Below are positions 4,796 to 46,169 of a DNA stretch of 46,179 bases, piece by piece. The translations under genes were made by a program, and so were the position numbers. Where the stretch lies: positions 1 through 46,179 of the forward strand of contig PCQY01000018.1 in the NCBI GenBank assembly GCA_002770755.1, read 5' to 3'. This stretch comes from a candidate division WWE3 bacterium CG23_combo_of_CG06-09_8_20_14_all_40_14. Its GTDB lineage: Bacteria; Patescibacteriota; WWE3; CG2-30-40-12. Within the stretch, counting starts at the first letter, position 1; the number at the start of each line of letters is the position of its first letter. A model generated the notes under the pieces. That model had not been told where the DNA came from. It did no database searches and saw only the letters and a program-made list of their open reading frames with translations.

Positions 4796-5341
4796 AAATT
4801 GTGGGATAGCAGGCACGGGTGGGCAGGGGATATTATGGGGGCGTTAGCGGTATTGACTATAGGGTGCTAGACATGAAAGCGGTAACACCATAGGAAATTT
4901 GTCATAGTTTAAGATGTCGTTATTGTCATAGTGTTGTAGACAGGTGGCTTTGGCGGGTGGGGTTGTGGATAACTGTGGGAAGTGTTTTAATTTTGGGGCG
5001 GACAATAATAAGAAGAACTCTTTAATAAGCGCTTTTCATTTAATTTAAATAAATTATCAGATTTTAAGTAAAATTAATTTCTAGGAAACTATTATTCTCT
5101 TTTACGATTATTTGTTCATTTTTTTATTTTCGCCTTGCTCGCCCTATGTAATGTCGTTAAATATACATAATACGACAACACAGGTTTCTGTATTTCTGTT
5201 CCCCGCTCCACAATTTTGTGTCTCGGAAAATTTTATTTTAGTAAATTTAAACATTTCTAAATAATTAAAATTTGTATCTCTCTACTGTCTTTCGCCTGTT
5301 TCTCCTTTTAGCCTTTATTACAATGTTAATGTCGTTTATTG

Positions 5342-7437: not shown

Positions 7438-7468
7438 AGGGGTCTGACCCCTTTGGGGTCAGACCCCT
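7438..7468. repeat. REP-like 31-nt double palindrome (copy B)
   Basis: aggggtctgacccc-ttt-ggggtcagacccct, perfect, between the rnhB start and the gyrA stop. Confidence 0.9.
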
Positions 7469-7476
7469 ATTGAGCT

Positions 7477-9987
7477 TTATATAGCAATAAAGGAAACTAC
7501 TTTGTCCTTTTCTGAAAGCCTTATCAGCCTTACACCCTGTGTGTGTCGTTTTAGCGCTGGCACTTCCTTTACGGCAAGTCTTATTACCTTCCCTCCCGCC
7601 GAAGTTATTAACAAGTCCTTTGATTGCTCGTTCGCCATAAAAGCCCCCACAACTTTGCCCACGCTGTTACCGGTTTTATAAGTTAATATTCCCCTGCCTC
7701 CGCGATTTTGCACCTTGTACTCCGAAAGCAAGGTTTTTTTGCCGGAACCTTTTTCCGATATAACTAAAAGCCACATTTTTTCCGCGCTGTCTTTTTTCCC
7801 CACTACAGTACAGCCTACCACTTCATCACCATGCTTTAATCTTATTCCTGTAACTCCCGCGGCGGCCCTGCCCATAATGCGGACATCCTCTTCCTTAAAC
7901 CTTATGGACATTCCTCCTGCCGTAGTCAGCATCGCTTCATCTTTTCCGGTTGTTTGTAAAACCCATCCCAAAGAATCTTCGCTGGATAACTTTATTGCTA
8001 ATATCCCCGTAGAACGGATGTTTTCAAAATCTGATAACCGTACCCTTTTAGCTATGCCCCGCCTTGTTACCATAAGTAATGTGGGAAGCGCAGAAGGTAT
8101 AGGAGGCGTAGAAGGTGTGGGCAGGATTGCCGTAACCAATTCTTTGGACCCCAAATTTAACAAATTTACTATAGCCGTTCCCTTAGCGTTTTTTGAAGCT
8201 TCCGGTATTTCCCACGACCTCAAAGAATAAACTTTTCCCGTGTTTGTGAAAAACAGCACTTTATCATGAGTATCGGATATTATAATTTTTTCTACCGTAT
8301 CGTTCTCCCGCAGTTCCGACCCCCTTACGCCTTTTCCTCCCCTGCCCTGCTTCTTAAATGTTTCCACGCTTAATCTTTTTATGTAGCCGGTTTGCGTTAG
8401 TGTTAAAACTACATCCTCCTCCTTAATAAATTCCTCCTCCTCCGGTTCGTAAATATCCCCTTTTACCACTTTAGTTTTTCGTTTGCCGGCGTACTTTCGT
8501 TTAATCTCTAACAGCTCCGCTTTAATAATATCCATTACCTTTTGCTGGTTTGCTAAAATTTCCTTAAAATTTTTAATTGCTTGCACAATCTCCTTTAACT
8601 CATCCTCTATCTTTTTTCTCTCAAGCGCCGCCAGCTTTCTTAATTGCATATCCAAAATAGCCTGCGCCTGAATGTCGGTGAGCTTAAATTTTTCCATCAA
8701 CGCGGTCTTTGCTGTTTCGGCATCCCTTGATTGGCGGATTGTTTTTATAACATCCTCAATATGGTCAAGCGCTATCTTTAAACCTTGCAGAATATGCTCC
8801 CTTTCCTGCGCCTTTTTGAGTAAGAACTCTGTCCTTTTTGTTATAACCACTTGTCTGTGCCTCAGGAATTCCTCCAGCATAGTTTTTAAATTCATAAGTT
8901 TTGGCTCGTTGTTTATTAACGACACCATATTTGAATTAAAAGCTTTTTGAAGTTCCGTATGTTTGTACAACAAATTTAGTATTCTTTGAGGTTTCGTATC
9001 TTTTCTAACTCCAATGGCAATCCTCATACCCGATATATCCGACTCGTCCCGCAGATCGTTTATTCCGTCTATTTTTTTCTCCTTAACAAGCTCCGCTACT
9101 TTTGCTATTAAGGCGGATTTGTTCACCTGATAAGGCAGTTCGGTAACCGCAATTACATATTTCCCGTCTTTTTCTTCTATTTCAACTTTGGCTCTTGTCA
9201 TTATTCTTCCCCGCCCTGTAGCGTAAGTTTGAATTATGTCCTTCTGATTGTAAATAATTCCTCCTGTTGGAAAATCAGGACATTTAATAAAATTTAAAAT
9301 ATCCTCAATTGAGGCTTTGGAGGAAAATTTATTAAATTCAATACTCTCGGCGGTTTCCAAAAGGTGCAAAAGTCCATCAACCACTTCCCCCAAATTGTGG
9401 GGCGCAATGTTGGTTGCCATTCCTACGGCTATGCCGGATGCTCCGTTTAATAAAAGATTGGGGATTTTTGTTGGCAGAAGAATGGGTTCATAATAGTCCC
9501 CGGAATAATTAGCCGTAAAAGGAACGGTCTCTTTTTCTATGTCGCATACAAGCTCCCCGGCAATTTTTGAAAGGCGGCATTCTGTATACCGCATTGCCGC
9601 TGGCGGGTCGCCGTCCACCGACCCAAAATTACCCTGCCCGTCTATTAATGGGTATCTTAATGTAAAATCCTGCGCCATTCTTGCTAAGGCATCATATACC
9701 GAAACATCTCCGTGAGGGTGATACTTTTTTAGTACTTCCCCAATTACCGCGGCGCATTTTTGGTGACGGGCATTAGCAGTCATACCCTGCTCGGTCATAG
9801 CGTAAATTATTCTTCGCTGAACAGGCTTTAACCCGTCCCTAACATCGGGCAAAGCGCGGGAAACAATTACAGACATAGCATAGTCTAAATACGCTCTTTG
9901 CATTTCTTCTGTAATTGGAGTGGATAAAATAGCCTTTTTATTATCAGTATTTTCCGGTTCCGGTTGAGCTAGAGTTATATTCTCCAT
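7477..9987 (-). CDS. gyrA: DNA gyrase subunit A
   Basis: 836 aa. AAMRYTE active-site Tyr motif, GyrA-box-like QGRGGKGV, and C-terminal beta-pinwheel repeats. Confidence 0.95.
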
Positions 9988-9993
9988 TTTTTA

Positions 9994-12015
9994 TTATATT
10001 ACCGTTCCTACAATTAAAAGCGCTACGATATTTATTATTTTTATCATCGGGTTTATTGAAGGACCCGCCGTATCTTTATAAGGATCTCCCACAGTGTCTC
10101 CTGTAACAGCGGCTTGGTGGGCGAAACTTCCCTTCCCCCCGAATTTTCCCGTTTCTATGTACTTTTTAGCATTATCCCACGCCGCTCCGCCAGTGGTCAT
10201 AGATATGCCCACAAAAATTCCCGTAACTATGGCGCCTACAAGTAACCCCCCGACGGCAGTGGCCCCTAAAATTCTACCAACTAATATAGGCGCTAAAACC
10301 GGAATTAAAACTGGAATAACCATCTCTTTAAGCGCCGCTTTGGTAACAATATCTACTGTTTTGGCATAATCGGGTTTGGCGGTTCCCTCCATAAGACCTT
10401 TAATCTCCTTAAACTGTCTTCTCACCTCGCTAACAACGCTTCCAGCGGCTTTGGACACAGCTTCCATAGAAAAGGACGCAAATAAATAAGGCAGAGAGCC
10501 CCCTATAAAAAGTCCGGCAATAACTGTAGGGTCCGAAAGGTCAAATTTTATAATTCTTCCTATGTTCTGCAATTCCTCCGTAAAACTTGCAAACAAAACC
10601 ACCGTGGCAAGCCCTGCCGAACCTATGGCGTACCCTTTAGTTACAGCTTTTGTGGTATTGCCCACCGCGTCTAATGCATCGGTTACTTCCCTAACTTTGT
10701 TTGAAAGTTTGCTCATTTCCGCTATCCCCCCCGCATTATCGGTAATTGGCCCAAACGCATCCACCGCAATTATTATCCCCGCTACCGACAACATACTTAT
10801 TCCGGCGGTGGCTATGCCGTATAACCCCGCCAGTGAATATGATGTTAGAATTGCGGCAGTAATTACAAGAACAGGCGCAAAAGTTGCTCTCATAGAAACC
10901 GCAAGACCCGCTATTACATTGGTGCCGTGCCCGCTTTCGGATGCCTTGGCAATATTTTTTACAGGCTTGAAATCTTTTGAAGTGTAATATTCTGTTATTA
11001 CAATTATAAGCGCCGTAACGGCAAGTCCTATTATAGAGGTTAAATACAAGGAAAAAGTATCTATGCCTTTTAGCATAATAGCAGTAACCGGATAATATAA
11101 AATTGCAGAGATTATTCCGGAAGCTATTAAGCCTTTATATAAAGCTTTCATTATAGACTTGTCTTTGCCCAGTTTTACAAAGAAAGTTCCAATAATAGAT
11201 GCCAAAAGGGATACCGCGCCAAGAACTAAAGGATAAATTACCGCAATTTCCATATTAAGATTGTTTGCCCCCCTAAAATTTCTTAAAGCCAGTGTTCCTA
11301 AAATTATGGCAGATACTAGAGTAATGGCGTAAGTCTCAAAAAGGTCAGCCGCCATCCCGGCGCAATCGCCTACATTGTCTCCTACATTGTCCGCTATAAC
11401 GGCGGGATTTCGCGGGTCATCCTCTGGAATTTTCTGCTCTACTTTTCCCACAAGGTCGGCTCCCACATCCGCCGCCTTGGTAAAAATTCCGCCCCCTACT
11501 CTGGCAAAAGCCGAAATGAGACTTCCTCCAAAACCTAAGCCCACCAGCCCTGCTAAACTTTTGGTGAGAAAATAAAATGCGGTTACCGATAAAAGGCCCA
11601 ATCCAGCAACTAAAAGACCCGTTACCGCCCCGCCCTTAAAAGCCACCGTTAAAGCCTTTCCTAAGCCCTGTTTTGCCATTTCCGCTGTTCTAACATTGGT
11701 TTTTACAGCGGCGGTCATGCCTAGAAAACCCGCCAGTCCAGAAGCTACCGCTCCCAGTAAAAACCCCAGCGCTGTTAAATACCCCAAAGATAAAAACAGC
11801 ACCCCGAAAAGCGCCAAAGCTACAATGCCTATAACTTTATATTGAGCCTTAAAGTAAGCATTTGCGCCAAGTTCAATTGCTTGCGCTATTTCCCTCATTT
11901 TGGGAGTTCCGTTTGGCAATTTTAAGATGCTCTTGTAAAGGAAATAACTATACCCTATGGCGATAATTGCCGGTAAAGATATTAAAATTGGTAACAATAA
12001 ATTTAGATTATGCAT
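9994..12015 (-). CDS. hppA: membrane-integral H+-translocating pyrophosphatase (K+-independent type by the GNTTKA motif)
   Basis: 673 aa, about 16 TM segments. [15 protein letters not shown] and DTVGDPYKD motifs. Confidence 0.9.
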
Positions 12016-12040: not shown

Positions 12041-14044
<2,004 letters not shown>

Positions 14045-22012: not shown

Positions 22013-22516
22013 ATGGAGAAAGTTATAGGGGTCAGACCCCTGCTAAAAGGGTTTACGCTTGTTGAGCTGATTGTTGTTGTAGCGCTGGTTTCAATGATAG
22101 CTTCGTTGTCTTTAGTGGCTCTTAACCCTGCCGATATTTTTGCCCGCTCCCGCGATTCAAAAAGATTATCCGATTTAGCTTTTTTGACGAACGCCTTTGA
22201 GCGGTATAATATTGATAATGGAGTTTATCCTGACTCAGCGGCGATTATGCGGGTAAGCAGTTCTCTGCCTCAAGACCAAACAGGACCTTTGCAAAGCGCC
22301 TCTTCCGGTTGGATAGTGGGTGATATGTCTAAATATATCTCCCGCCTTTCTACGGATCCCAAAAACGAGGATTTTTTGGTGTATAGATACAAAAGGTCTG
22401 AAAATGCCTATGAACTTGATTGCTATTTAGAATATTACAAGGAAAAATCTCAAGCGGATGGCGGCAATAATGCGGAGAGATTTGAAGTGGGAAATGATAT
22501 GAGTATTTTGCCGTAA
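22013..22516 (+). CDS. prepilin-type N-terminal cleavage/methylation domain protein
   Basis: MEKVIGVRPLLKG|FTLVELIVVVAL. The leader codons overlap a REP half-site. Confidence 0.75.
   Translation: MEKVIGVRPLLKGFTLVELIVVVALVSMIASLSLVALNPADIFARSRDSKRLSDLAFLTNAFERYNIDNGVYPDSAAIMRVSSSLPQDQTGPLQSASSGWIVGDMSKYISRLSTDPKNEDFLVYRYKRSENAYELDCYLEYYKEKSQADGGNNAERFEVGNDMSILP
22027..22041. repeat. REP half-site (15-nt palindrome aggggtcagacccct) inside the pilin leader codons
   Basis: Exact match to the right arm of the REP. In frame it encodes GVRPL. Confidence 0.8.
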
Positions 22517-25045: not shown

Positions 25046-26926
25046 GTGAATACAAACTGTCCATTAGTGTTATTTTTGGCTCTTTGCTTTTTTTTGTTCT
25101 CCTCTGTAGTTTTTGCAGATGGGGATATAACTCCTCCAACAACATCCCCCTTGCTTAGCCCCGCATATCCCAATGGTGAGAATGGCTGGTACACTGTTCC
25201 TGTGGATATAGCTTTGAACGCGGTTGATTTGGAGTCAGGCGTTAAAGAGATAAATTGGAAACTTAATGATAATTTATGGACAAAAAAAACATTTTCCCAA
25301 ACGCTTAATATGGTTATAAACTCTTCCTTTGAGACTGGAACGGAAGGGTGGAGTTTTTCATCATTTAACAATTCCACAGGAGAACGGACGAATGAATTTG
25401 CCAAAATTGGAGATTATTCCGTTAAAATAAATTCTTTAGAAAACGGCACATCCTTTTTTACTAATAAGAGCAATTATGTTGTGGTTTCACCGTGGAAAAC
25501 CGTTTCGTTAGGCGCTTGGCTTAAAGGCAGTAATATTATGGGAGATGGCGCATTTTACAAAATTTATATTCTTACTGCGGAAGGAAGCAAACTTTTGTAC
25601 ACCTCGTCTGTCCACAACGGAACTTATGATTGGCTATATGATTCAAAAGATGTTATTATCTCTTCCGACTCTGCTTATGGGCTTTATTTTGAACTCATTT
25701 TGCAAGGGGTAGGCGCGGTGTATTTTGACGGGGTGTATGCGGCCTATGCCTCGGAACAGCCTAAAGCGGAATTTACGGTGTCTGACAATGGAGAAAATAC
25801 GCTATCCTTTTACTCGGTGGATTTTGCCGGAAACATAGAGACTACTAAAACCGCAGATTTTAAGATAGATACCATAGCTCCCACAAATTGGCAGAATTTT
25901 GAGGCGGAAAATTCTGGAAACGCCCATACTTTTATATCTAAAATTAGTGTTTCAGATAACGCTTCCGGATTAAATGCGAATTCCTCCCAATTTCAATACT
26001 CTCCGTTAAGCGATTTGGTATGGGGGTATTTTACCGACTACGAAAATTGCAAAGGAATTTTTGAGGCGGGAAAATGGCTGTCTGCCACCGTTGATTTTAA
26101 TGAGGGGGGTTTGAGCGGGAGGTTGGAGTCCCCCTCTATAGATTACTGCAATTCTAATTGGTTTTTTTGCAAGGGTAATAGATTTAAGATTGAAGACTTT
26201 GCGGGAAACGATTCCACAAAGGAAATATGCTTGAATGGTCCTTGGGTTAAAAGTATAGATGGGGATGTTGCATCATTAAGTTCAATAGATATGCTTTCGG
26301 CAGGAGCAGAGGATAATACAAACGCTATGGTAATATCGTCCAAATCTTTGTCCAACTTTTCCTCAAGCCGTAATTGGCTGATTTCCTATTATCAGAACAA
26401 GTTTGACGGGGGGATGTACTCTTACGATTTTCTAATCGGTGAGTTCCCCCCAAGCAGTACTATTGATAAACTGCCCACGGAAAATGGAGTTTTTAAGACG
26501 GCTAAAACTTTACAAATAAATTATTTTGCTATTCCGCAAAACTATGCCAGTCGGCAGTTCTCAAATGTGCTTTTTGTTAATGGAGATTTGATAGTTTTGC
26601 GAGATGTTAATATGAAGGATACCTCCGGCACAATCTTTGTAGTTAAAGGGGATGTTTTGGTAAGCAGATGGGTTTCTTTCTTGGACGGCTTTTTTATTGT
26701 AGGCGGTACTTTTAACACCTCCTATAATGGCGGGATAGTGGACAACTCTTTAAAGATATTCGGCGGGGTTTTGGCTAATAAGGTTGACTTAAACAGAAGT
26801 TTCTCCACTTTTAAGATTGCCAGCGAAGAACCTTCGGAAGAATTTATTTATGACCCAAAATATTTAATTGAGTTTACATCCCTTTTTGGTAATGCTAGTA
26901 TTAAATGGAGCGAGATTTTTGAATAA
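25046..26926 (+). CDS. large secreted multi-domain protein (candidate pilus-associated adhesin)
   Basis: Sec signal peptide ...FSSVVFA|DG. Ig-like surface-domain pattern GENGWYTVPVDIALNAVDLESGVKEI ... SFYSVDFAGNIE...KIDTIAPT, with a CBM4/9-like insert (NSSFETGTEGWS ... VYFDGV). The C-terminal region looks beta-helix-like. GTG start. Confidence 0.6.
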   Translation: MNTNCPLVLFLALCFFLFSSVVFADGDITPPTTSPLLSPAYPNGENGWYTVPVDIALNAVDLESGVKEINWKLNDNLWTKKTFSQTLNMVINSSFETGTEGWSFSSFNNSTGERTNEFAKIGDYSVKINSLENGTSFFTNKSNYVVVSPWKTVSLGAWLKGSNIMGDGAFYKIYILTAEGSKLLYTSSVHNGTYDWLYDSKDVIISSDSAYGLYFELILQGVGAVYFDGVYAAYASEQPKAEFTVSDNGENTLSFYSVDFAGNIETTKTADFKIDTIAPTNWQNFEAENSGNAHTFISKISVSDNASGLNANSSQFQYSPLSDLVWGYFTDYENCKGIFEAGKWLSATVDFNEGGLSGRLESPSIDYCNSNWFFCKGNRFKIEDFAGNDSTKEICLNGPWVKSIDGDVASLSSIDMLSAGAEDNTNAMVISSKSLSNFSSSRNWLISYYQNKFDGGMYSYDFLIGEFPPSSTIDKLPTENGVFKTAKTLQINYFAIPQNYASRQFSNVLFVNGDLIVLRDVNMKDTSGTIFVVKGDVLVSRWVSFLDGFFIVGGTFNTSYNGGIVDNSLKIFGGVLANKVDLNRSFSTFKIASEEPSEEFIYDPKYLIEFTSLFGNASIKWSEIFE

Positions 26927-34698: not shown

Positions 34699-35772
34699 TT
34701 ATCTTGTGATATTATACCCTATTACTTCCTCGTATAGGTTTCTCGCTTTTTTGTCTTTTTCAAAATATTCCCGTACCGGTTTTATTAACATTTCAAGGCT
34801 TTCGGACACACCCATTTTTAAATCATTAGGGTGCAAATTTCCCATCTCGTAAGCTTTTTTAAGTTCGTTCGCCGTTTGGTATTCAATATAGCCCCCGTGT
34901 TCTTTGGCGCGGTAAATTTTTAAGTTGCCTAAACTTGGAAAGATGATATATTTTGCGTATTCAAAAACCGGGTTGCCTTGTGTTTGGTTTGGCGGGCAGA
35001 AGGCGGTTCTTATTTTATTCTCAATTTCTTTTTTAGTGTCGTGCATATATATGCTGGAAGTTGGATCGGATTTAGACATTTTTGAAGCGATTAGAGTTTG
35101 TTCGGCATCCTCCATTTGTTTTATTCCTTTTAATCCTAAAAGCATATGGTGATGGACGGCAATAGGCTTTTTCCAATTTAATTTATCCGCGATTTCCCTT
35201 GCTATCATATTAGCTCTTCTTTGGTCCATTCCAAGCTGGCAGATATCAATATCCATTTCAAAAATATCCGCGACTTGCATTGAAGGGTAAAATAACTGCG
35301 CAGTGGATAGAATATCTTTTTGGCTTCTGCCGGCGATGGTTAAGGACTTGAATGTTCGGTTTAGGGATAAATGCCTTGCCACGGTGAGAACTCTATCCCA
35401 ATACTCCAACGAATCCATTATATCGCTTGCCCAGATAATTTCTATTTTATTGGTTTCTACTCCGCTGGCTTTCCAAACTTCAATAAAATACTCTCCCACT
35501 CTTTGGATTTTTTTTATGTCCGCGTCCATTTTGTTATTTATGTATGCAAAATAATCGGCAAGATATAATTTTAAGTGGATGCCTGTTTCAAGAAGTTTTT
35601 TTACATTTATAGCGCGCAAAAGTCCAAAATGGATTGGGGCGATGCCCGAAGGTTCAAAGCCGTCGTAAGCCACAGGGTGCTCTTTTTCTTCAAACAGCTT
35701 TAAAAGTTCCTCCTCGGAGATTATTTCCTGGGCGAAGCTTTTTATAACTTTTACTTTTTCTTGCGGGGTCAT
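34699..35772 (-). CDS. tyrS: tyrosyl-tRNA synthetase, archaeal/eukaryal type
   Basis: 357 aa. Blocks EIISEEEL, AYDGFEPSG, LADYFAYINN, YPSMQVADI, GMDQRR, KMSKS, CPP...GNP and LHPNDLK match archaeal TyrRS along the whole length. No bacterial C-terminal S4-like domain. Confidence 0.8.
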   Translation of the reverse strand: MTPQEKVKVIKSFAQEIISEEELLKLFEEKEHPVAYDGFEPSGIAPIHFGLLRAINVKKLLETGIHLKLYLADYFAYINNKMDADIKKIQRVGEYFIEVWKASGVETNKIEIIWASDIMDSLEYWDRVLTVARHLSLNRTFKSLTIAGRSQKDILSTAQLFYPSMQVADIFEMDIDICQLGMDQRRANMIAREIADKLNWKKPIAVHHHMLLGLKGIKQMEDAEQTLIASKMSKSDPTSSIYMHDTKKEIENKIRTAFCPPNQTQGNPVFEYAKYIIFPSLGNLKIYRAKEHGGYIEYQTANELKKAYEMGNLHPNDLKMGVSESLEMLIKPVREYFEKDKKARNLYEEVIGYNITR

Positions 35773-35976
35773 ATTTAGTATATTACCAAATTAATCTAAT
35801 TAACGAAATGATAATTCCCTCATTAACTTTTAATCGTGTTTTTAGGGCTTTTTCTTTCCCAATAATTTTCTTGAGAATAAGAAGTCCCCCGGTTTCTACT
35901 CCTTGCAAACCAATAGGTTTTGTTAATGCTTATGTTTCCCATACTTTGGGAGTTTGCCTAACTATTAGGAGCGTTG

Positions 35977-36408
35977 TCAAGAACTTCTTTGCAAAAATTT
36001 GTCAATTTGTGAAACGAATTCGTCAAAATCGGAAAGGTTGTTTTGAATAATATTATATATTTCTTTTGGATCAACATCCTCGTATTGGTGAACAAAGATA
36101 TTTCTTGCTCCAATCGCCTTTTCCATTTTATTGGAAATTTCTTTGGTAATTATTTTCTTTTTGGCGAGAAGTGGAAAAACCTCTCTATTTTTCTTGTATC
36201 GACCCAAAAGAAGTTGAGATGTTATATGTTGAGAAATATCCAGCACAGCTTGTAAGGCTATTTGCAGGTGGTGAAGCGTTCCGTAATATTCATGGATATT
36301 TTTGTCATTATTAAATTCTTCAAACGAGATACCAACAAAATCAGTTAGTAGAGATCGTTCTCTTAGAATTGTTTTTAGCCTTTCCTGAATTCTTTCTTTG
36401 TCGAGCAT
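35977..36408 (-). CDS. hepT: HepT-type HEPN toxin (DUF86)
   Basis: RNIFVHQY is the Rx4HxY HEPN motif. 143 aa. Overlaps the upstream MNT gene by 34 nt. Confidence 0.8.
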   Translation of the reverse strand: MLDKERIQERLKTILRERSLLTDFVGISFEEFNNDKNIHEYYGTLHHLQIALQAVLDISQHITSQLLLGRYKKNREVFPLLAKKKIITKEISNKMEKAIGARNIFVHQYEDVDPKEIYNIIQNNLSDFDEFVSQIDKFLQRSS

Positions 36409-36812
36409 AGGTTATTCTTGGCTTGTTCAACAGAAGCCTCGTAAGCCTCGTTTAAATAAGGTTCTATGTCGTTATACTCGTTTCTTGTGGCAACTTCGAA
36501 ATCCGCCCTTTCCCCGGCGTTTTTGCAAAATACTACTTTTTGTGGGTATATTGCCTTAAATCTAAAAAGAGGAGATTTGTCATTTAAGATATTTACATGG
36601 ATGTTCCCGAATCGCGCAAGTTTTGCAGAAAGTCCCCCCTCGTCCAACAGGGAATGGTTTTCTCCTTGGTAAAACAAAACGCCAAGGTCTATATCGGAAT
36701 CTCTTTTGGCGTCGCCGTTGGATTGTGAACCATAGAGATACAAAGCCAAAATTCTAGTATCGGTTTGCAATTCTCTTTTAATTTTTTCTAGCGTTAATTT
36801 TATATTTCTCAT
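36375..36812 (-). CDS. mntA: MntA-type minimal nucleotidyltransferase antitoxin
   Basis: LYLYGSQSNGDAKRDSDIDLGVLF is the GSx10DxD motif. Confidence 0.8.
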   Translation of the reverse strand: MRNIKLTLEKIKRELQTDTRILALYLYGSQSNGDAKRDSDIDLGVLFYQGENHSLLDEGGLSAKLARFGNIHVNILNDKSPLFRFKAIYPQKVVFCKNAGERADFEVATRNEYNDIEPYLNEAYEASVEQAKNNLCSTKKEFRKG

Positions 36813-36906
36813 ACTATTTTATGTTAGCACATTGCTTGCGATATTGTAAAATTGTGTGAAGGTGCAAACCACGCCTTTTCTTTTACGCTGTCCTCTATGG
36901 ATATTT

Positions 36907-36921
36907 AGGGGTCTGACCCCT
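36907..36921. repeat. REP half-site followed by T8 (terminator-like on the plus strand)
   Basis: aggggtctgacccct then attttttttg. It abuts the 3' end of tRNA-Tyr. Confidence 0.75.
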
Positions 36922-36931
36922 ATTTTTTTTG

Positions 36932-37005
36932 TCCAGGGGGTTGGATTCGAACCAACGAATGGCAGTTTTACAGACTGCGGCCTTAAACCACTTGGCTACC
37001 CCTGG
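36932..37005 (-). tRNA. tRNA-Tyr (anticodon GTA), class I architecture with C1:G72
   Basis: Hand fold: CCAGGGG / TA / GCC-AAGTGGTTTAA-GGC / C / GCAGT-CTGTAAA-ACTGC / CATTC / GTTGG-TTCGAAT-CCAAC / CCCCTGG / A. 74 nt, with no encoded CCA. Confidence 0.85.
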
Positions 37006-37019
37006 GTCAAACCCCTTCT

Positions 37020-37048
37020 ATTTTACAATATTGCAGTCCATTGTGTAA
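37020..37048 (-). promoter_or_regulatory. candidate promoter for tRNA-Tyr
   Basis: Minus strand reads TTACAC, 17-nt spacer, TAAAAT, ending 14 nt before tRNA position 1. Confidence 0.3.
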
Positions 37049-37049
37049 A

Positions 37050-39275
37050 ATGGACTTAATGCTAAATTTTAAAAACAAGAAAAAAAGATCCCTTATCCTA
37101 GTGTCCCTTGCTTCTATGGCGCTGTTTGTTGTAACCGCGGGGGCAATTTTTTCCATGGCGCTATTTAGCGTTTACTCTGCCATACTTCCCTCCCCTTCAA
37201 AGCTGACCACAAGAAATATTGAACAATCAACAAAAATTTTTGATAGAAACGGCAAACTTTTATACGAGGTCTTTGCGGATAAAAACCGAACTTTGGTACA
37301 GCTTCAGGATGTGTCCCCTTCTTTAATCCATGCCACTTTGTCTGCCGAGGATTCCGATTTTTACAAGCACCGCGGATTTGATTTAATTGGCATCACGCGC
37401 GCTGGATTCAATATGTTAAGAGGGAAAGGTTTGCAAAGCGGTTCCACCCTCACCCAGCAGCTTGTTAAAAATGCCCTTTTAACCAACGAACGAACAATCA
37501 ATAGAAAGATTAAAGAAATTCTATTATCTTTGCAAATAGAAAGGAAATACTCCAAAGACGACATCTTAAAAATGTATTTAAACGAAGCGCCATATGGCGG
37601 TACCGCCTATGGTGTGGAAGCGGCAAGCCAATACTATTTTAGCAAATCTTCTAAAGATTTAACTTTGGCGGAAAGCGCCTTGATAGCTGGTTTACCCCAG
37701 TCACCCTCCTATTATTCCCCTTTTGGAGCTAATCCCGAAAACGCCACCGCCCGTCAGCATTATGTTTTGTGGCTTATGAAAACAAGAGGGTGGGTGGAAA
37801 AAGATGGCGTGAGGCATTTTATTACCGAAGAGGAGTATGCCGCCGCTAGAGAAGAAGTTCTTAAATATGCCAGTATAAATCATGGCATTAAAGCGCCCCA
37901 TTTTGTGATGTATGTAAAAAGTCTTCTTAGTAGGCGCTATAACGAAAATATTGTGGAGAATTCTGGGCTTAGTGTTACCACTTCTTTGGATTTGGATTTT
38001 CAAGAGCAGGCAGAGGAGATTGTTAAGAGCGAAGTGGATAAAGTTAAATATCTTAGTGTGGGGAACGCTGCCTTAGTTGCTATTGACCCCAAAACGGGTC
38101 AAATTTTGGCAATGGTGGGTTCAAAAGACTATTTTGATATGGAAAATGACGGCAATGTGAATGTAACCTTATCTCTAAGGCAACCCGGGTCGGCTATTAA
38201 ACCTTTAACCTATATAACAGCTTTTGAGCGCGGATTTACCCCCTCAACAGTTTTATTTGATGTCCCCACAAAATTTTCGGGCGGAGAGGGGCAACCCCCG
38301 TACATTCCCGTTAACTATAACGGGAAATACATAGGACCGACGCAAATCCGCTACGCTTTGGCAAATTCTATAAATATCCCGGCAGTTAGAATGCTTAAAC
38401 TCATTGGTGTAGAAAATGTTATGGATACGGCAAAAAAATTTGGAATCACCACTTTTAGCGACCCTTCCCGCTATGGCCTTTCCCTAACATTAGGTGGCGG
38501 AGAGGTTAGACTTTTGGAATTGACCAACGCCTTTGGAGTTTTTGCAAGCGGCGGAATTTACCACTCTCCGGTTGGTATTCTTAAAGTTGCGGACGCAAAA
38601 GGTAATGTTTTGGATGAGGAGACCTCTTATAAAGGAGAAAAAGTTATAGATAGCTCTTACACTTATTTGATTTCGGATATTTTATCGGATAATAACGCGC
38701 GCGCCGCAGTGTTTGGTTTAGGCAGTAATTTGGTAATTCCGGGACACACCGTTGCGGCTAAAACCGGAACCACAAACGATATAAGAGATAACTGGACAAT
38801 TGGATACACCCCCTCAATAGTGATTGGTGTTTGGGCAGGCAATAACGATAATTCTCCTATGGCAAAAGGGCTGGCTTCGGGTATTACCGGGGCGGCGCCT
38901 ATTTGGCAAAAAGCTATGATAGCTTATCTAAAAGATAAAAAAGATGAAAAATTTGAAAAGCCTGATAATATTATAGATGTGGAAGTGGGAAAAACTTCTG
39001 GGATGCTGGTTTATGAAGGCGCGGAGGATGGGAGATGGGAGAAATTTGTTAAGGGAACCGAACCGGTATCCGTTTCCGATTGGTTTATACCCCTTGAAGT
39101 GTGCAAAAAAGATAATGGCGATTATAAGCTTAAAAAGGATTGCGATGATGAGGAGGATAAAATAAAAGAAAGGATTTTTGTTAAGATGAAGGCGGAACTC
39201 ACGGAGTGGCAGGAGGATGTGGATGCATGGATAGAAGAAAACATTGACGACAAAGATTATTTTCCCCCCGATTAA
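37050..39275 (+). CDS. class A penicillin-binding protein (glycosyltransferase + transpeptidase), PBP1A-like
   Basis: GT51 motifs EDSDFYKHRGFD and GSTLTQQL. Transpeptidase motifs SAIKP (SxxK), SIN (SxN) and KTGTT. N-terminal TM anchor. Confidence 0.9.
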   Translation: MDLMLNFKNKKKRSLILVSLASMALFVVTAGAIFSMALFSVYSAILPSPSKLTTRNIEQSTKIFDRNGKLLYEVFADKNRTLVQLQDVSPSLIHATLSAEDSDFYKHRGFDLIGITRAGFNMLRGKGLQSGSTLTQQLVKNALLTNERTINRKIKEILLSLQIERKYSKDDILKMYLNEAPYGGTAYGVEAASQYYFSKSSKDLTLAESALIAGLPQSPSYYSPFGANPENATARQHYVLWLMKTRGWVEKDGVRHFITEEEYAAAREEVLKYASINHGIKAPHFVMYVKSLLSRRYNENIVENSGLSVTTSLDLDFQEQAEEIVKSEVDKVKYLSVGNAALVAIDPKTGQILAMVGSKDYFDMENDGNVNVTLSLRQPGSAIKPLTYITAFERGFTPSTVLFDVPTKFSGGEGQPPYIPVNYNGKYIGPTQIRYALANSINIPAVRMLKLIGVENVMDTAKKFGITTFSDPSRYGLSLTLGGGEVRLLELTNAFGVFASGGIYHSPVGILKVADAKGNVLDEETSYKGEKVIDSSYTYLISDILSDNNARAAVFGLGSNLVIPGHTVAAKTGTTNDIRDNWTIGYTPSIVIGVWAGNNDNSPMAKGLASGITGAAPIWQKAMIAYLKDKKDEKFEKPDNIIDVEVGKTSGMLVYEGAEDGRWEKFVKGTEPVSVSDWFIPLEVCKKDNGDYKLKKDCDDEEDKIKERIFVKMKAELTEWQEDVDAWIEENIDDKDYFPPD

Positions 39276-45399: not shown

Positions 45400-45430
45400 A
45401 GGGGTCTGACCCCAAAGGGGTCAGACCCCT
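45400..45430. repeat. REP-like 31-nt double palindrome (copy F)
   Basis: aggggtctgacccc-aaa-ggggtcagacccct, perfect. Confidence 0.9.
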
Positions 45431-45471: not shown

Positions 45472-46131
45472 ATGCCTTCAAAACACCGAATTCGCCAATA
45501 CGGCGAAGATTGTTATTACCACATATATAACCGTGGTGTAGAAAAGAGAGATATTTTCCTAGACATTGCCGACTATAATTTATTTATATATACCTTGCGC
45601 AAATATTTGGAACCTGATTTCAAAATAATTAGAAAGAATCCCACAACAAATGAAAGAATAGTTATGGAACCAGATCATGTATATAAAGATATTTCTTTAC
45701 TAGCTTTTTGTTTAATGCCAAATCACTTTCATTTATTGGTGAAATTAAAAAAGCGGGATGGGGCCACAAAGTTGATGAGAAGAGTTTGTACTAATTATGT
45801 TGGATACTTCAATGAGAAATATGAAAGAGTGGGCGCTTTATTTCAAGGAACCTTCAAAGCAGTACGGGTAACTACACAAGAGCAATGTTTGCAGTTGTCT
45901 CGTTACATTCATATTAACCCAAGAGCTGTAACTTATAAAGGTAATATTGAAAGCTATGTTTACTCAAGTTTTTATTATCTTTGTAGAGATAGTACACCCT
46001 CCTGGTTGGATTTTAATAGTGTGCTTTTAGGGAACACGGTTCAGGATTATAAAAAGTTCGTTATGAGTAGGGTTGAGGAAGACTTTAGTGAAGCCGAAAA
46101 AAGCACCCTGTCAAATGTATTATTAGATTAA
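45472..46131 (+). CDS. REP-associated tyrosine transposase (RAYT) / IS200-like Y1 HUH transposase
   Basis: YHIYNRG start region, HUH motif MPNHFHLLV, and catalytic Tyr motif SRYIHINP. 219 aa. Confidence 0.8.
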   Translation: MPSKHRIRQYGEDCYYHIYNRGVEKRDIFLDIADYNLFIYTLRKYLEPDFKIIRKNPTTNERIVMEPDHVYKDISLLAFCLMPNHFHLLVKLKKRDGATKLMRRVCTNYVGYFNEKYERVGALFQGTFKAVRVTTQEQCLQLSRYIHINPRAVTYKGNIESYVYSSFYYLCRDSTPSWLDFNSVLLGNTVQDYKKFVMSRVEEDFSEAEKSTLSNVLLD

Positions 46132-46138
46132 GCTATTT

Positions 46139-46169
46139 AGGGGTCTGACCCCTTTGGGGTCAGACCCCT
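46139..46169. repeat. REP-like 31-nt double palindrome (copy G, inverted relative to F)
   Basis: aggggtctgacccc-ttt-ggggtcagacccct, perfect. Confidence 0.9.

Follow-up and report, generated by a model that had tools for sequence, protein, structure and literature searches.

In bacteria, tRNA-Tyr begins with a G1:C72 pair and carries a long variable arm, whereas in archaea and eukaryotes it begins with C1:G72 and has no such arm. This difference was long held to be a domain-level barrier to the transfer of tyrosyl-tRNA synthetase (TyrRS), and genetic code expansion builds its orthogonal pairs on it. The closest described systems lie within the candidate phyla radiation (CPR), where Mukai, Reynolds, Crnkovic and Soll (2017, Life 7:8; PMC5370408) reported archaea/eukarya-type TyrRS together with C1-G72 tRNATyr in Parcubacteria, Microgenomates, Dojkabacteria and Katanobacteria (WWE3). 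In their account the archaeal-type TyrRS of CPR is derived from DPANN archaea, many C1-G72 tRNATyr retain the variable arm (V-arm), and one Roizmanbacteria genome contains both arm-bearing and arm-less C1-G72 forms. Here we analyzed a tyrS gene and a nearby tRNA-Tyr(GUA) gene on contig PCQY01000018.1 (assembly GCA_002770755.1) of a candidate division WWE3 bacterium. The whole contig, 46,179 nucleotides long, is called the window below.

The archaeal tyrosine identity switch in WWE3 has been known since 2017 (PMC5370408). A first-pass annotation of the window, made from its sequence alone, had implied that the joint switch of enzyme and tRNA was new; this does not stand, because the switch was published for CPR including WWE3, with and without the V-arm, and our literature search found no later paper altering that picture. 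Our own main conclusion concerns this locus: the features of the two genes make it very probable that they are the tyrosine-charging pair of this WWE3 bacterium under archaeal/eukaryal identity rules. The two genes are:

34699-35772, minus strand: tyrS, archaeal/eukaryal-type tyrosyl-tRNA synthetase of 357 aa (NF006330, structure matches, residue alignment)
36932-37005, minus strand: tRNA-Tyr(GUA) (ARAGORN, Rfam RF00005, covariation)

Synthetase and tRNA of the window

The window enzyme is an archaeal/eukaryal-type TyrRS, not one of bacterial type. Against the NCBIfam model NF006330 (PRK08560, archaeal-type tyrosine-tRNA ligase) it scored 359.8 bits (cutoff 220), with a match spanning residues 3-346 and model positions 3-337 of 342, whereas the bacterial tyrS model TIGR00234 gave 90.3 bits, under its cutoff of 113.8. 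The best solved-structure matches were eukaryote-like (8zmi/7sc6 with 336 bits, 3vgj with 291 bits), followed by 2cya (246 bits), 2cyc (242 bits) and then the Methanocaldococcus jannaschii enzyme 1j1u (146 bits); no bacterial TyrRS among solved structures matched at E<=1e-10. Pfam identified tRNA-synt_1b (PF00579) alone, at residues 30-329 of 357. It found no S4 domain, and the 28 residues past residue 329 are too short for one.

The residues which bind substrates in M. jannaschii TyrRS could be traced by alignment. Its tyrosine pocket Y32/Q155/D158 corresponds to Y36/Q166/D169 in the window enzyme, the contacts to anticodon base G34 (H283/D286) correspond to H314/D317, and the KMSKS motif lies at residues 231-235. 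In M. jannaschii R174 reads C1, K175 reads G72, and R132 contacts C1 via water (PMC1934993); the window enzyme has R185, R186 and K142 at these positions. We suggest that this class Ic enzyme of DPANN/eukaryote-like type would activate tyrosine with its KMSKS loop and the Y36/Q166/D169 pocket, and would select its tRNA by G34 (H314/D317), by the discriminator A73 and by C1:G72 (R185, R186, K142). The long variable arm, to which bacterial TyrRS binds, would not be needed because the enzyme has no S4-like domain. On the side of the partner tRNA, the matching changes would be a first pair turned round to C1:G72 and the loss of the long arm.

The tRNA gene has the form which such an enzyme would read. 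The only tRNA that ARAGORN detected in the window was tRNA-Tyr(gta) (36931-37005, minus strand), and Rfam RF00005 matched 36932-37005 with 64 bits (gathering score 29) over the full model. The acceptor stem CCAGGGG/CCCCUGG consists of seven Watson-Crick pairs, the first being C1:G72, and is followed by the discriminator A73. After the acceptor strand and the bases UA come the D arm GCCA/AGUGGUUUA/AGGC, a single C, the anticodon arm GCAGU-CUGUAAA-ACUGC, a variable loop of 5 nt (CAUUC, within the class I range of 4-5 nt; 5-6 nt in related tRNA-Tyr) and the T arm GUUGG-UUCGAAU-CCAAC. All 20 cloverleaf pairs are kept in four related tRNAs, those of the window and of loci L143, L087 and L088 in our numbering, with compensatory changes in the T stem (U:A to C:G and U:A to A:U). 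When the register was slid by 1-3 columns, pairing in these four tRNAs fell to 58% or less, and none of these slides gave the window tRNA an alternative register with G1:C72.

The window gene does not encode CCA, since A73 is followed by CAA; the CCA end would be added post-transcriptionally. This trait varies among close relatives: CCA follows A73 in L088 (4607-4683), L215, L216 and L221, CAA in the window (36929-37005) and L087, and CCG in L143.

Apart from the implied novelty, what the first-pass annotation had read at this locus was borne out throughout. It had described an archaeal-type TyrRS lacking the bacterial C-terminal domain, and NF006330, TIGR00234, the structure matches and the end of the Pfam core agree with this. 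ARAGORN and RF00005 agree with its perfect 7-bp acceptor stem from C1:G72, A73, 5-nt CATTC loop and missing CCA, which is to say the archaeal identity set without the long arm, and the call of tRNA-Tyr(gta) in no other register removes the risk of misfolding that it had raised. Its proposal that enzyme and tRNA changed their recognition mode together is likewise supported; here an archaeal/eukaryal-type TyrRS with its C1:G72 readers kept meets an arm-less C1:G72 tRNA.

Bacterial host and the conserved position of tyrS

The host is a CPR bacterium. Its proteins are named candidate division WWE3/Katanobacteria, and the neighbours of tyrS are bacterial (PBP1A, RecG, TrmD, PilMNO, gyrase). The gene order is thrS-infC-rpmI-rplT-pheS-pheT, pbp1A on the opposite strand, tRNA-Tyr, mntA, hepT and tyrS, then recG, rsmD, nusB, acpP, rnc, rpsP, a KH protein gene, trmD and pilMNO. 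Database proteins identical to the TyrRS, ThrRS and RecG of the window are assigned to metagenome-assembled genomes (MAGs) of candidate division WWE3 (Katanobacteria). Identical TyrRS occurs in several Crystal Geyser MAGs and is also on record as OIP97235.1 (bacterium CG2_30_40_12); PIP04654.1, PIS12671.1 and PJE50892.1 are further accessions from MAGs with this protein.

Could an archaeal gene have been joined to a bacterial contig during assembly or binning? CPR and DPANN do co-occur, and cross-contaminated bins are known (PMC5370408). However, the same TyrRS was present on 22 contigs that had been assembled independently, with differing samples and assemblers (it is indexed in 37 collection blocks), and the bacterial neighbours were identical in all six retrieved loci that carry the exact window protein. 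The gene order is kept in relatives at 62-85% identity, and the GC content of tyrS (0.385; 0.399 at third codon positions) is like that of its host (window mean 0.394). An artefact of this kind is so improbable that we give it practically no weight. A chimeric assembly and a recent transfer were both excluded by the replicate contigs, the shared neighbours and the matching GC.

The position of tyrS is constant in the clade. In all 11 WWE3-clade loci (the window and ten others) it lies between pbp1A and recG, down to 62% TyrRS identity, in the core arrangement thrS-infC-rpmI-rplT-pheST, pbp1A, tyrS-recG-rsmD-nusB-acpP-rnc-rpsP-trmD. This shared position over such a range of identity argues for a long vertical inheritance of tyrS within the WWE3 clade.

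Bacterial homologs of the enzyme, labelled Patescibacteria, Parcubacteria or WWE3, range from 85% down to about 62% identity, and the nearest non-bacterial homologs are DPANN proteins (Pace-, Woese-, Micr-, Aenigm- and Nanoarchaeota) with about 57-62%. A scan of GTDB species representatives gave 80 TyrRS loci, 78 labelled archaeal and two bacterial; there were no close bacterial relatives of the window TyrRS among these 80, a set which does not include the window's species. The outcome of the scan supports an archaeal affinity of the enzyme. The first-pass annotation had called for a TyrRS phylogeny, and a quick neighbor-joining (NJ) distance tree of a small taxon sample places the window enzyme in an all-bacterial clade which is sister to a DPANN clade. 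The gene would have been acquired long ago from DPANN-like archaea and then inherited vertically at its fixed core position.

Two loci with archaeal-type TyrRS bear bacterial labels. L067 (NZEQ01000080.1, 'Verrucomicrobiales') groups by score with Poseidoniales archaea and is probably misbinned. L012 (JAKBPE010000015.1, 'bacterium') has 53% identity, and its tyrS neighbours are FtsZ, lipoate ligase and lipoyl synthase genes.

Linkage, cargo and origin of the tRNA

In the slot between pbp1A and tyrS, a tRNA-Tyr(GUA) with C1:G72, A73 and a variable loop of 5-6 nt was detected in seven of the 11 distinct WWE3-clade loci. Identity to the window TyrRS, presence of the slot tRNA and genes found between tRNA and tyrS were as follows:

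Window: 100%; tRNA-Tyr in slot; cargo HepT/MntA
L087: 85%; tRNA-Tyr in slot; cargo Y1 transposase and an unknown open reading frame (ORF)
L088: 81%; tRNA-Tyr in slot; cargo M78 peptidase and an unknown ORF
L143: 79%; tRNA-Tyr in slot; cargo P-type ATPase
L221: 67%; tRNA-Tyr in slot
L216: 64%; tRNA-Tyr in slot
L215: 62%; tRNA-Tyr in slot
L089 (also L218-220): 77%; no tRNA-Tyr in slot; BrnT/CopG and other genes in the slot
L090: 76%; no tRNA-Tyr in slot
L217: 68%; no tRNA-Tyr in slot

The arrangement differs between the branches. In L215 and L216 the two genes are directly adjacent on the same strand, in an operon-like arrangement with 23 and 40 nt, respectively, between the tRNA 3' end and the tyrS start codon; in L221, which like them is a deeper branch, the tRNA lies 44 nt from tyrS and is inverted. 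In the sub-lineage of the window the tRNA stays beside pbp1A, and the cargo between it and tyrS varies. HepT/MntA is lineage-specific and was not found in the same slot of relatives. In L087 the Y1 transposase gene lies directly downstream of the tRNA. In L216 a gene of the Trp_repressor family (PF01371; 9319-9738) lies directly upstream of the tRNA-Tyr-tyrS pair. A trp repressor gene also heads the tRNATrp(A73)-TrpRS-A operon (Mukai et al., PMC5370408), and by analogy the regulator of L216 may control the tyrosine pair.

The interval between the two window genes and the region upstream of the tRNA contain the following features, of which the third is a repetitive extragenic palindromic (REP) sequence:

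35977-36408, minus strand: hepT, encoding the HEPN RNase that is the toxin in a type VII toxin-antitoxin system (PF01934, 95.5 bits; NF047751, 101.9 bits, cutoff 60)
36375-36812, minus strand: mntA, nucleotidyltransferase antitoxin (PF18765/PF01909; NF047752, 67.7 bits, cutoff 60)
36907-36921, no strand assigned: single REP palindrome AGGGGTCTGACCCCT, 10 nt beyond the tRNA 3' end
35780-35788, minus strand: putative extended -10 element TGGTAATAT upstream of tyrS, 7 nt from its ATG
37020-37049, minus strand: promoter-like site TTTACA-18-TAAAAT (10/12 matches), upstream of tRNA-Tyr

The HepT and MntA genes form a type VII module: both proteins pass their equivalog cutoffs, the adjacent genes overlap by 34 nt, and the catalytic motifs RX4H of HepT (R-NIFV-H) and GSX10DXD of MntA are readable in the translations. 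With this and the REP singlet, the linkage across a toxin-antitoxin pair and a REP half-site noted in the first-pass annotation is confirmed. A functional tie between HepT/MntA and the tRNA was considered and rejected, as every relative carries unrelated cargo in the slot.

The distance from the tyrS start to the tRNA 3' end is 1159 nt, which holds the toxin-antitoxin module, the REP hairpin and a -10 box. The window, L087, L088 and L143 share the motif TTTGGTAAnAT at 5-8 nt before the tyrS ATG, and the rest of the intergenic region is unalignable. The window tRNA-Tyr and tyrS are linked but, because tyrS has this conserved -10 box of its own and the remainder cannot be aligned, they are not an operon; the toxin-antitoxin module is a passenger. 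In the stretch that holds the -10 box (window 35773-35795, minus strand), a Shine-Dalgarno sequence does not fit between box and ATG. The box and its short distance suggest that tyrS is transcribed from a promoter of its own into a leaderless or nearly leaderless mRNA. The tRNA, too, is probably transcribed from its own promoter: besides the promoter-like site listed above, a TTGTAAAAT box upstream of it is kept in L087 and L088. A mirror image of the promoter-like site on the plus strand faces pbp1A (37041-39275). Of the Rfam families searched around tyrS and tRNA-Tyr, T-box or other, only tRNA reached its gathering score.

A 16-nt inverted repeat with 94% complementarity, TGCGATATTGTAAAAT / ATTTTACAATATTGCA, surrounds the tRNA gene (window 36837-36852 and 37020-37035), and each arm holds a TTGTAAAAT -10-like box. 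The mirror-image promoter-like sites face the tRNA, mntA, pbp1A and a possible short plus-strand transcript that ends at the REP hairpin. The REP singlet is followed by T8 on the plus strand, a terminator-like match; read on the tRNA strand, A8 precedes it.

Where did the tRNA itself come from? Its D stem has three pairs (G10-C25, C11-G24, C12-G23) and an A13.A22 mismatch, closed by a long loop with two extra bases, which differs from the standard class I D-arm of a 4-bp stem and a 7-9 nt loop. The two extra bases align with class II tRNA-Tyr sequences, and the 5' half is 27 nt, a length shared with all class II tRNA-Tyr sampled, with 21/27 identity to the canonical bacterial tRNA-Tyr of L198/L135. 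The class-II-like D-arm remarked on in the first-pass annotation is real. A metagenome scan for tRNA-Tyr with the window anticodon arm and T loop gave at least 75 distinct sequences. Among the 75 matches listed, 65 were canonical, with G1:C72 and a long arm. Six combined C1:G72 and A73 with a long arm, four of them sharing the exact acceptor stem of the window; a protein on the contig of one of the six (L107) clusters with a Roizmanbacteria protein. Four had C1:G72 with a short loop, all from the window's own lineage, and G1:C72 with a short loop was not found among the 75. C1-G72 tRNATyr that still bear the arm are inferred to derive from bacterial tRNATyr (PMC5370408), and the D-arm of the window tRNA is in keeping with this.

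These data allow a tentative proposal, which we regard as possible but doubtful: that in WWE3 the archaeal-identity tRNA-Tyr and tyrS have been a linked two-gene unit since the switch, and that the window tRNA is an intermediate, a bacterial class II tRNA-Tyr whose first pair has been turned round and whose long arm is gone while the class II D-arm is retained. A bacterial origin must be softened because the positional orthologs in L215, L216 and L221 have a class I D-arm. The history we favour over archaeal co-entry, as probable rather than certain, would be an ancestral arm-less tRNA with a class II D-arm that was later trimmed in one branch. In the competing history, an archaeal tRNA-Tyr, rather than a remodelled bacterial one, would have arrived with tyrS in a cassette of two genes and would have changed afterwards in the window branch, with adjacency as a relic. 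The slot tRNAs of L215, L216 and L221, 23-44 nt from tyrS and with class I D-arm, 5-nt V loop and encoded CCA, would suit such a relic, and PMC5370408 in its abstract leaves room for 'bacterial or archaeal origins' of tRNAs of this kind. The required neighbourhood is rare outside the WWE3 clade: of the 79 archaeal-type tyrS loci scanned there, which carry archaeal labels or are misbinned, one had tRNA-Tyr within 6 kb of tyrS, and none of the closest Nano-/Micrarchaeota loci did. The single case, the uncultured archaeon L029, has a C1:G72/A73 tRNA-Tyr (4965-5037) on the strand of tyrS and about 960 nt upstream of it, and speaks for the cassette. The class II length, the two D-loop bases and the 21/27 canonical identity of the window-lineage 5' half, and the acceptor stem identical to that of C1:G72 tRNAs still bearing the arm, speak against it. 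We hold the cassette to be unlikely, though worth keeping in mind; a tRNA of 74 nt has little phylogenetic signal and cannot settle its own origin.

Several observations weigh against our reading of the pair and its history. The NJ tree, being of the kind described, does not establish the direction or number of transfers, and the analysis covers one 46-kb contig of the genome, which leaves room for a second tyrosine pair. Four of the 11 related loci lack a tRNA-Tyr in the 6-10 kb around tyrS, and that of L221 lies on the strand opposite tyrS; tRNA-tyrS linkage is common but not obligatory. The last two facts, the unlike cargo in every close relative and the conserved -10 box at tyrS would also suit a linkage without meaning for charging, in which the tRNA gene is a common integration hotspot that happens to adjoin tyrS. 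We give this slightly less than an even chance, as each of the two main branches of WWE3 TyrRS includes cases of adjacency, and no att-like duplication of the tRNA 3' end was found as a direct repeat beside the toxin-antitoxin cargo. In our reading of the window lineage, the gap downstream of the tRNA would be a landing site for mobile cargo, and HepT/MntA and the REP singlet would stand outside the charging system. CPR genomes are small and rarely have duplicate aminoacyl-tRNA synthetase genes, which counts against the archaeal-type pair being an extra orthogonal pair beside a canonical bacterial one elsewhere in the genome. Such coexistence is documented in CPR, where the TrpRS-A/tRNA-Trp(A73) operon of Beckwithbacteria accompanies a canonical pair (Mukai et al., PMC5370408), but for Trp only and not for Tyr. 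The window tyrS moreover lies among housekeeping genes at a position conserved clade-wide, its catalytic and tRNA-reading residues are intact, and its composition is fully ameliorated. A second pair is therefore improbable, and the window pair would be the cell's only one for tyrosine.

Some features of the window lie apart from this question. For the 15-nt palindrome AGGGGTCTGACCCCT, chance would give 0.54 matches in the window, whereas 23 were counted. In intergenic DNA, inverted doublets lie at 1237-1267, 7438-7468, 45400-45430 and 46139-46169, and singlets at 22027-22041 and 36907-36921; between the doublets at 45400-45430 and 46139-46169 lies an ORF for a Y1 (IS200-like) transposase (45472-46131). 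In this CPR genome the palindromes and the Y1_Tnp ORF thus make up a system of REP and REP-associated Y1 transposase (RAYT). Between gyrB (12041-14029) and gyrA (7477-9987) a gene for a membrane H+-pyrophosphatase (9994-12015) is inserted, all three on the minus strand. Directly upstream of pilM/N/O, a 626-aa ORF (25046-26926) has no Pfam match, and its positional counterparts in relatives (619-626 aa) are likewise on record without one.

Comparison with described tyrosine systems

A bacterium living by the archaeal tyrosine rule means that the barrier between domains can be crossed, a point made in 2017 for the same group. If the tentative proposal of a linked unit with an intermediate tRNA is true, that intermediate and the long-arm C1:G72 tRNAs of other CPR groups would form a natural stepwise series of viable tRNA identity rewiring, and such genomes would be a source of orthogonal tyrosine pairs naturally adapted to bacteria. 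The slot, the adjacency and the half-converted look of the tRNA bear on the route of the switch and could help engineers to select natural pairs, although the added value is modest.

Compared with the canonical bacterial TyrRS (TIGR00234) and its class II tRNATyr, the window pair shares the GUA anticodon, A73 and the class Ic fold (PF00579). It differs in falling below the cutoff of that model (90 bits against 113.8), in having no S4-like domain, and in C1:G72 without the long arm. The M. jannaschii pair (1J1U), which serves genetic code expansion as its standard orthogonal pair, is alike in its minimal TyrRS without a C-terminal RNA-binding domain, in the equivalents of R174/K175/R132 and in its class I tRNA with A73. 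The two enzymes have, however, only 33% identity, that of the window exceeds the other by 51 aa and matches the eukaryote-like 8zmi/7sc6 with a far higher score than 1j1u (336 and 146 bits), and the tRNA D-arms differ. Iraha et al. (2010, PMC2887954) engineered E. coli in the laboratory by putting an archaeal pair in place of its endogenous TyrRS-tRNATyr. That strain, like the WWE3 bacterium as we read it, is a bacterial cell dependent on an archaeal-identity tyrosine pair, but there both genes were transferred together by design, whereas the WWE3 switch would be natural and ancient, and its tRNA may be a remodelled bacterial one.

The CPR systems of Mukai et al. (PMC5370408) are nearest, with the same combination of a DPANN-related archaea/eukarya-type TyrRS and C1-G72 tRNATyr as in the window. 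Their text gives an operon only for tRNATrp(A73)-TrpRS-A and no linkage of tRNATyr with tyrS. It has most C1-G72 tRNATyr retaining the V-arm and names the V-arm-less form for one Roizmanbacteria genome only, whereas here this form is the slot tRNA across the WWE3 clade, and it is silent on a fixed slot, on variable cargo and on a class II D-arm in an arm-less tRNA. The fixed tyrS slot, the frequent adjacency of the tRNA, the variable cargo and the retained class II D-arm are the small extensions which this locus adds to the system they described.

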